Of a stretch of 64,000 bases of DNA, positions 28,401-31,400 are shown piece after piece. Location of the stretch: assembly GCA_044892525.1 (NCBI GenBank), contig CM097885.1, positions 22,446,001-22,510,000 of the forward strand. The letters are read 5' to 3'. Within the stretch, counting starts at the first letter, position 1. Every line of letters begins with the position of its first letter. Position numbers and translations under genes: made by a program. Source of the stretch: Schmidtea polychroa (taxonomy: Eukaryota). The notes under the pieces are model-generated. The model did not search any database. It saw nothing but the letters and a program-made list of their open reading frames with translations, and was not told where the DNA came from.

Positions 28401-31400
28401 TTCGAAAATTAACAATGGGAATAAATATATTTTAACATGTATTAATGTATACAGCAGGTTTGCACGAGCAATACCAGTCAAGGCAAAGTCCGCAGAAGAA
28501 ATGTCCAAGGCAATTAATATTTTATTTAAAGACGGACATCCTAATAACTTGCAAACAGATTTAGGTATTATTATTATTATTATTATTATTATTATTATTA
28601 TTATTATTATTATTATTATTATTATTATTATTATTTTAGGTAAAGAATTCTACAATAGTAAAGTTAAGCAAATCCTCGATAAACTGAAAATAAATCACTA
28701 CTCAGTACATTCTCAATACAAAGCTGCCCATGTTGAAAGATTTAATCGAACATTGAGAGATCGATTAAAGAAATTGTTCGTGCATCAAGGTAATAAAAAA
28801 TGGGTAAATGCTTTACCGAAAATAATAACAAGTTATAATCATTCATCACATCGAGGACTGAATGGATTGAGACCGGTTGATATTACATCAAAAACATCAT
28901 TGACTTCTAAGAAATCTGTAAAAATTGCAAAACCTAAATATAAAGTCGGTGACCATGTTAGAATTAGTAAAATTAGTGCATCACCATTTATTAAAAATTT
29001 TGATACTAATTGGAGTGATGAAGTCTTTGTAATTTCAAAAATAAATACTAAACAGCATCCTGTAATGTATGTCATCAAAGACAATGATAATAATATTGTA
29101 CAGGGGAAATTTTATGAGCAGGAATTACAAGTCATTCCTCCCCCAAAAGTATTTAGAATTCAAAAAATATTGAAAACTAAAAAGGTCGGTAAGGATAAAC
29201 AATACTATGTCAAATGGCATGGTTATCAAAACCCGTCATGGATATCAGCAAAAGACCTAGTAAAGTGAATTTTTATACTATTTTGCCGAGCAATAGTTGT
29301 CCATTAATTCATCCAGACAATCAAGCCAGTAAATTCATGGTCAATCTTCAGAATCCGATTTCTTTAAATGGGGATTGGGAAGTTGCACTGCAAGATTTTA
29401 CATTCGTGTACAACACATTCCCATTTTATAGTCAATGTAAGATTGATTTCAAAAGGAATATTGTGAAAACATGTAGCGGTATCTTTGTTATCAGTAATTA
29501 TGATAAAACATATCATATTCCGAATCAAATATTAGATTCGCATTGCTATATGTTTTACAAGGATGGATTAAATATCAGTTGTGATTTTAAACCATTTACA
29601 ATAACATTCGAAACTATTGAAGATGCCAAACGAATGGGTTGCAATAAGTTGAAAAATATTGTTACGGAGACCGAGTATTTATTACGTTTTAATCTATTTG
29701 AAGCAAACAGTGTAATGAAAGAAGAAATCAAAATATCTGTGTCGTATAATGATGAAGTTGAAGAATCATTTACCTTTGCTGATGAATTATATTTTGATAA
29801 ACTTGATGATTTACTTAAATATTTAAAGTTCAATTGTTCACACATATTTAAAAATTTGGAAATTGTGAAAGATTTGATGTTTACCTTCAGTTTGAATGAT
29901 GATATTTGCGAAGTTACATTTGATAAAAATTTGGCAAATTCACTTGGATTAGATAAGCAAAAATATCGAGAAAAATCGACTGGTATACGCAAACCAAGAA
30001 TACTAGAACATCATCAACAAATGTTCATATATACTAACATTATCGAACCCATAATTGTTGGTGATTCCAGTGTTCCTCTTTTGAAATCGGTATGGATTGG
30101 CAAATATGAACATGATGAAGTTGTCAATATAAATATCGATAATCCCATGTATTTACCAATAGCAAGTTCATGTATAAACAATATAGAAATAAATATTCGT
30201 GATGATAGTGGAAAACTTATAAACTTTCCAAAAGGTTCAAAAACTCATTTGACATTACATTTTCGTAAAGTAGATGGCAAATTCTGATATTATTAGTATG
30301 TATAGTGGTAGCCAATCTGGTGGTGATTTACCATATTTTATTGGTAAACAGTACGGATCAGGATGGTTGAGAACAATAGGTAGATTTGCATTGCCTATTC
30401 TTAAACGTATCGGTAGTTTTGGTATGAAAACTGCAAAAGATGTTATTATGAATGAACAGAAAATATTACCATCTCTAAAAACAAATGCTTTAGCAGAATT
30501 AGGGAAAGTTTTACCCGGGGTTGCAGGTATGTTTCAAAAACCAGCTCCAGCACTAGCTCCAGCTCATGCTCCAAAACGTAAAAGACATGGAATATCACGT
30601 ATAAACAAACGAATGAAAGGACATGGAACTATATTTGCAAAATGATTTGTGGTAAATCTGAATTATGTATATTTGATAGACCATCGCCCCAGGCTGTAAT
30701 AGAATTTGGGGCATTTGAGGAAGTTTTTCCTATGAATTCAATTACAGATAGTAGAAATGATATCGAGTTTTATATTAACGGTTCACAAACCGAATATTTA
30801 GATTTGAACGATACTTTATTGACTGTTCAGATTAAGGTTGTAGATAAAGATAGAAAAGTTTTGGATGCCAATGCAGATGTAATACCGAACAATTTCCTGT
30901 TTCATACTCTTTTTAAAGATGTAGTGTTGGGATTTAATAATATCAAGATTGAGGGCGGAAATAATACATTCATTCACAAGGCATTAATAGAAACTATTTT
31001 AAATTACAATTCCGATACTAAAAATACATGTCTTACTCCTATGGGTTATGGCAGTGATGATGAAAGAAAAAAGTGGGTAAAAGGCTCAAAGGTTTTCACC
31101 ATGTGCTCATCATTACAACTTGATTTTATGGATCAACCGAAATATTTACTACCGGGAGTTAATGTACATATTAGATTGAAAAGGTCTGATTCTGCATTAT
31201 CTCTTACTAGTGCAACTACTGCACCAATATGTCAATTAGTTGATGCAAAATTATTGGTGAGAAGAGTTCGAGTAGACCCCTCTGTATTAGCTGGTCATCA
31301 ATTGGGTCTTAATTCAAAACATGCAATTTATCCCTTAAAAACAAAGGAAATTGTACAATTTGCTATTGCTAAAGGTGCTTCATCATTCTATAAAGAACAA

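Follow-up and report, generated by a model that had tools for sequence, protein, structure and literature searches.

The window analysed here, i.e. the whole stretch of 64,000 nucleotides from contig CM097885.1 of Schmidtea polychroa, contains a Maverick/Polinton element with terminal inverted repeats at 22172-23416 and 39921-41693, the main arms of which are 96-99% identical, and with a 6-bp target-site duplication in the form of an identical 6-mer at 22166-22171 and 41694-41699. The element also codes for a DDE integrase of the retroviral type, for a packaging ATPase (Pox_A32) and for an adenovirus-like protease (Peptidase_C5), the latter two with Pfam matches above the cut-off, all of which are Maverick traits. 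The trait to which this element and its family, referred to below as family A, do not conform is the intronless state of the core genes, which is descriptive of Mavericks and not strictly defining. The features on which the following sections draw are:

22172-41693, no strand assigned: Maverick/Polinton element of family A, 19.5 kb, with long terminal inverted repeats and target-site duplication
28177-28564, plus strand: integrase exon 1, with a putative start methionine
28378-28380 and 28558-28560, plus strand: catalytic Asp codons of the integrase, both in exon 1
28560-28567, plus strand: left copy of an 8-nt direct repeat (Leu-Gly codons and donor), variable within family A
28565-28639, plus strand: very probable phase-1 GT-AG intron of 75 nt, its body made of 23 perfect ATT units
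28635-28642, plus strand: right copy of the 8-nt direct repeat (acceptor and start of exon 2)
28640-29268, plus strand: integrase exon 2, with the catalytic Glu codon (28735-28737) and a chromodomain-like C-terminal part
31895-31932, plus strand: ordinary 38-nt phase-2 intron of the protease gene, at a position common to families A, B, C, D and E
54347-54373, plus strand: integrase motif of a degraded family-E copy, with an in-frame stop inside the motif
56481-56516, plus strand: counterpart of the protease intron in this relic, with a degraded acceptor

Two further open reading frames of 1245 and 426 codons have no Pfam match and presumably code for a protein-primed DNA polymerase B and the major capsid protein, respectively, judging from motifs, size and gene order. 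A TATA-binding-protein-like domain is encoded on the minus strand at 26400-26864 (Pfam TBP, E 1e-15), homologs of which families B, C and D carry at the equivalent location, and a gene for a basic core-like protein at 27576-28115, upstream of the integrase, is interrupted in this copy by an in-frame stop (27957-27959). Insertion of the Maverick has split an open reading frame on the minus strand (21914-22207 and 41654-42390), which, going by its motifs, looks like that of a hAT-type transposase.

The integrase gene is interrupted one codon past its second catalytic Asp codon by an insert that reads GT, 23 ATT units and TTAG, the flanking exons ending at 28564 and beginning again at 28640. As had been noted from the sequence at first sight, this insert of 75 nt of pure ATT is a multiple of three in length and free of in-frame stops, and the open reading frame 28102-29268 accordingly continues through it, its translation running from QTDLG via 23 isoleucines to LGKEFYN. 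By alignment to solved cores via the homolog P0001, the Asp codon at 28558-28560 corresponds to the QTD/NTD Asp of retroviral integrase cores. The motif QTDxGxEF is uninterrupted in 120 of 120 homologs among the matches listed (P0001-P0120, which are intron-less by the way they were called) and also in families D, E and F; PF00665 is found in all 120 listed homologs, while the interrupted reading frame matches Pfam rve with an E value of 1.3e-5, under the curated cut-off. The duplicated TTAGGTA that the first-pass annotation saw around the insert does flank this copy, although the true repeat is one nucleotide longer (8 nt), and it is not a general feature of the family, as will be seen from the other copies.

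Exact pattern searches located at least 1,349 places in the genome with a family-A junction, at 961 of which the exon ends in TTAG and at 388 in TTGG, in each case followed by the repeat, whereas reversed-pattern controls gave no match. These 961 and 388 places with the 5′ junction rule out chance or an assembly slip as the source of the insert. An insert-free family-A junction was not found in the assembly within two mismatches of a 24-mer: all 16 matches to the insert-free 24-mer carry the letter of other families at the last place, and the 10 of them that were compared upstream are 77-79% identical to family A. The insert is thus a fixed trait of family A. Its length ranges among the copies from 15 to 186 nt, in agreement with the microsatellite expansion proposed by the first-pass annotation, with 11 copies below 39 nt and 216 between 39 and 69 nt. 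Among 74 family-A loci that were measured, drawn from biased searches, the GT and AG ends expected of a U2-type spliceosomal intron are retained in 73; 64 introns are a multiple of three without stops and 10 are not a multiple of three, the exons being stop-free on both sides in 9 of these 10. Purifying selection acts on exon 1 in the A subfamilies, as seen from a dN/dS of about 0.11-0.14 when this copy is compared to four other copies. The direct repeat is much less constant, the upstream AG being missing in 388 of the 1,349 junctions (29%) and exon 2 beginning with GA or GC in some copies (L165, L168 and L170). On an exon-1 tree of 69 family-A loci, the TTAG/TTGG variant at the end of exon 1 changes six times, suggesting that the copies often recombine or convert one another.

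With respect to the question whether the insert is removed from transcripts, the contigs of four sequencing runs, the RNA status of which is a guess, were compared over positions 28627-28800. In run X8, there is a contig whose 22 loose letters are exactly those of window positions 28538-28559, joined to exon 2, a join that lies below the 31-letter bar for a bridging record. This joined form is a single contig in one of the four runs, and repeat-bearing contigs occur in X8 as well. The joined contig begins 30 letters ahead of the point where the joined and repeat-bearing forms fork, as a bubble in the assembly graph would, and its depth as obtained by subtraction is at most about 110 and likelier about 20, with 70 for the repeat-bearing contigs, figures from which a splicing rate is not derivable. 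Only repeat-bearing contigs are seen in X6. In X19, which stems from another organism, the acceptor is preceded by an AT-rich loose end that does not consist of the repeat, and other contigs cover the last ATT units; the sequence is too short to be assigned. A poly-T loose end of X18 at the insert site (28634) is uninformative for splicing; it is one of several poly-A or poly-T loose ends of this run within the integrase gene (the others being at 28243, 28897 and 29167), which possibly reflect internal priming or antisense RNA. Template switching of reverse transcriptase between short direct repeats is known (PMC2923612, as far as its accessible text goes), and the 8-nt direct repeat could yield false joins in this way. 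Stronger, though indirect, support for splicing is provided by the related families, where introns that shift the frame or contain a stop lie at the identical base. On the basis of both the joined contig and these introns in three other families (G, B and C), the insert is in all probability a true intron, as the first-pass annotation had held.

Of these families, G has an ordinary intron of 40 nt, i.e. of a frameshifting length of 3n+1, at the very base of the family-A insert and is found at 63 places; of 30 loci measured in the search for it, 20 have 40 nt, 6 more are of the G type and 4 of the A type. Since exon 1 mostly ends with TTGG and exon 2 always starts with GA, there is no direct repeat in G. 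In a pattern search for B and C types, which fitted 379 places (387 with a 5′ pattern), 22 of 30 loci carry the 41-42-nt intron of family B, which contains an in-frame stop and is flanked by a repeat of 10-11 nt, and 6 of 30 the 43-nt intron of family C at the identical base, with a shortened C-type intron at one locus (L201). Families D, E and F lack an intron at the integrase site; viral contigs yielded no relative, and of three loci in metagenome contigs the two that span the site are both intron-less. None of these families comes near family A in size. The relic near 54348-54380, which the first-pass annotation had used as the intron-less comparator, indeed has no intron at the site, but it belongs to a more distant family, E, to which it was assigned partly on a quick-search tree, and is therefore the wrong comparator. 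That it shares the protease intron proved correct, the intron position being present at 56481-56516, and the retention of this position in families A to E shows the lineage to inherit introns over such distances.

In trees of the integrase (35 loci and 10 homologs, with the intron columns removed; protein trees under LG+G4, with long branches present), A is sister to G with a support of 100/98, D groups with B and C (91/82-93), and E and F stand at the base among the database homologs with unresolved placement. A deletion of two codons is common to B, C, D and F. As A and G are sisters that share the intron base and differ in exon 1 by a dS of about 0.87, the intron position is older than the A-G split. 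A single clade of all intron carriers is rejected on the protein trees (p-AU 0.030 and 0.017) but not on the DNA exon trees (p-AU 0.085 and 0.10), and the integrase tree requires four changes of state, not counting the database proteins. Because families without the intron are scattered among the carriers on the tree, the deeper history calls for one more event: the intron may have arisen once and then been lost in D, or it may have arisen twice.

The first-pass annotation had considered the intron a candidate for a recent gain by AG|GT duplication and microsatellite growth. This cannot be upheld, since an ordinary intron at this site in related Mavericks, which that annotation had itself named as grounds for rejection, is present in the sister family G, where it is 40 nt long and lacks a direct repeat. 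Proto-splice duplication is possible for a much older first origin, of which the direct repeat may be a record, that of family B being longer; we infer, however, that the repeat is largely what Leu-Gly codons and an AT-rich splice consensus give anyway. Three further candidates were dropped once family G had been found to carry the intron, namely a gain by family A alone (based on the deletion common to B, C, D and F), an origin from the tail of a retrotransposon accompanied by a target-site duplication, and healing of the telomere-like kind.

The insert is best explained, and probably correctly so, as a short spliceosomal intron inherited from the common ancestor of A and G, the body of which was replaced by (ATT)n while its ends were kept and which is removed by the spliceosome of the host, leaving a normal integrase. 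The intron sequences of A type and G are no more similar to each other than shuffled ones (p 0.3-0.6), so that their homology rests on position and tree; unalignable introns are nevertheless expected under inheritance at a dS near 0.9. According to this explanation, ATT units would have been seeded by an ordinary ancestral intron some 40 nt long and composed almost entirely of A and T; the introns of the relatives are of such a composition and contain ATT units. Slippage would then have lengthened the units and recombination between copies would have spread the pure form, with selection acting only on the two intron ends and on a minimum length. The length in multiples of three would follow from triplet slippage and not from selection for an open frame. 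Transcripts retaining the intron would code for about 25 additional residues, 23 of them isoleucine, in the loop after the second catalytic Asp, likely resulting in a dead enzyme that would be a by-product and not a control device. The scarcity of short introns may likewise come from the dynamics of slippage rather than from selection. In both exon trees, the part-repeat introns of 42-45 nt (L197 and L206) fall within family A, so that they may be decayed repeats rather than precursors.

The takeover by ATT is best read as paralleling that of other non-coding spacers of the element. Eleven of the 16 perfect ATT/AAT runs in the window lie inside the element, which makes up 30% of the window length, and an array located in the terminal repeats, which are nearly identical to each other, comprises 13 units in one of them and 39 in the other. 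Beside the terminal repeats there is also cargo, consisting of a RING-finger protein (Pfam) and a short open reading frame, at 39380-39928 and 23963-24292, and upstream of the polymerase reading frame the region 32906-33867 comprises exon-like duplicated blocks and tandem repeats with ATT/AAT arrays between them.

Instead of being inherited, the introns of A, G and B plus C might have been gained separately at one and the same proto-splice junction, in A by ATT-filled repair of a staggered break, close to what the first-pass annotation had put forward. Such a hot spot would be in line with the uninterrupted junction of family D, which already reads as an acceptor plus a donor, with the unalignable introns of the different families, with the flanking repeat in B, and with the frequent parallel gains in Daphnia (described in the accessible part of PMC4202315); moreover, the grouping of D with B and C together with the deletion common to B, C, D and F implies at least two events anyway. 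However, it requires separate gains on the sister branches A and G, of which G lacks the direct repeat; in some A copies exon 2 starts with GA or GC, and the divergence of the introns is expected under inheritance. Two gains, one in A plus G and one in B plus C, fit the inherited-intron explanation; the three separate gains that the hot spot would require we consider unlikely. Somewhat less doubtful, albeit still speculative, is the proposal that intron gain and loss recur in the loop behind the second catalytic Asp in a DNA virus-like lineage, with at least two independent gains or a precise loss via an RNA copy, and that the host spliceosome efficiently excises an intron devoid of information other than GT, AUU repeats and AG. 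If true, the 1,300 and more copies of 15-186 nt would form a natural test series for the minimal intron, and the length of the repeat could tune the amount of active integrase per copy.

Two other readings bear on splicing itself. The insert might be a fixed, unspliced microsatellite that cripples the family-A integrase, with A depending for its movement on integrases that other families supply, and with the joined contig as an artefact of reverse transcription or PCR. The joined form is indeed one contig beside repeat-bearing ones in X8 and X6, template switching offers a route to it, and the genome harbours the intron-less families D, E and F. Yet it is hard to reconcile such a defect with the purifying selection seen in exon 1 between A subfamilies (about 0.12-0.14 in dN/dS), with GT and AG being kept in 73 of 74 introns, with the introns of G, B and C, which shift the frame or bring in a stop at this very base, or with the size of family A, and we regard this reading as very improbable. 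Hardly more credit can be given to regulated splicing, in which integration would be turned off through retention of the intron, the product being a poly-Ile integrase made in frame and spared nonsense decay. While 64 of 74 introns would permit this, the insert adjoins the catalytic Asp, and joined and repeat-bearing contigs occur together in X8, a length of 3n comes with any triplet repeat, and an open retained frame is not conserved, as G, B and C have frameshifts or stops. Furthermore, the repeat-bearing contigs can be explained by DNA or by nascent, antisense or read-through RNA from more than 1,300 copies, and contig depth does not provide a splicing rate. The on/off switch suggested by the first-pass annotation is thus without support.

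Core genes of intact vertebrate Mavericks are intronless according to the accessible text of PMC8097293, and the same is stated for nematodes, with introns only in cargo genes, in that of 10.1101/2022.07.12.499685. As far as described there, these animal Mavericks resemble family A in their terminal inverted repeats, 6-bp target-site duplication, integrase, ATPase and protease, but differ from it in that the family-A integrase and protease have short GT-AG introns. The accessible portions of PMC10748475, PMC8502044 and PMC11296320 contain no mention of spliceosomal introns in Maverick core genes, and no published report of this intron or of spliced Maverick core genes was found in a search that covered literature listings and the accessible text of the papers named here. 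From what is accessible of PMC4202315, the neointrons of Daphnia resemble the present case in the short direct repeats at their flanks (4-12 bp, compared to 8 here) and in the occurrence of unrelated introns at one site; however, they are polymorphic and absent from close relatives, whereas here the position is common to the sister family G at a dS near 0.9, and neither G nor 29% of the A copies have the direct repeat. The introners of dinoflagellates (PMC11957031, in its available part) are likewise spliceosomal introns inside maverick-polinton-like elements, but are transposons with a sequence of their own at many sites, in contrast to the family-A intron with its inherited position and without unique sequence. 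Introns are also found in the Polinton-like viruses of protists (PMC12220804, same restriction), there as self-splicing group I ribozymes of 309-376 nt as opposed to the short GT-AG introns described here.

As the core genes of animal Mavericks have been described as intronless, surveys that are blind to introns would score these large and young families as broken. The integrase and protease genes likely rely on splicing by the host, and their expression would thereby be linked to the nucleus and to the spliceosome of the host. Because the intron consists of two ends and a triplet repeat and exists in more than 1,300 copies of varied length, the minimal requirements for an intron and its branch point could be tested from existing RNA reads. 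As a caution, the clean picture of a direct repeat plus filler next to an intron-less neighbour mimicked a fresh gain.

Finally, the capsid-like gene (30582-31862), compared to those of loci L144-L163, has an identity of 83-86% between A and D and of 66% between A and B, at odds with the integrase tree, a conflict which suggests that modules may have been exchanged between families. In family B (L144 and L157), the minor-capsid-like gene is doubled in tandem.
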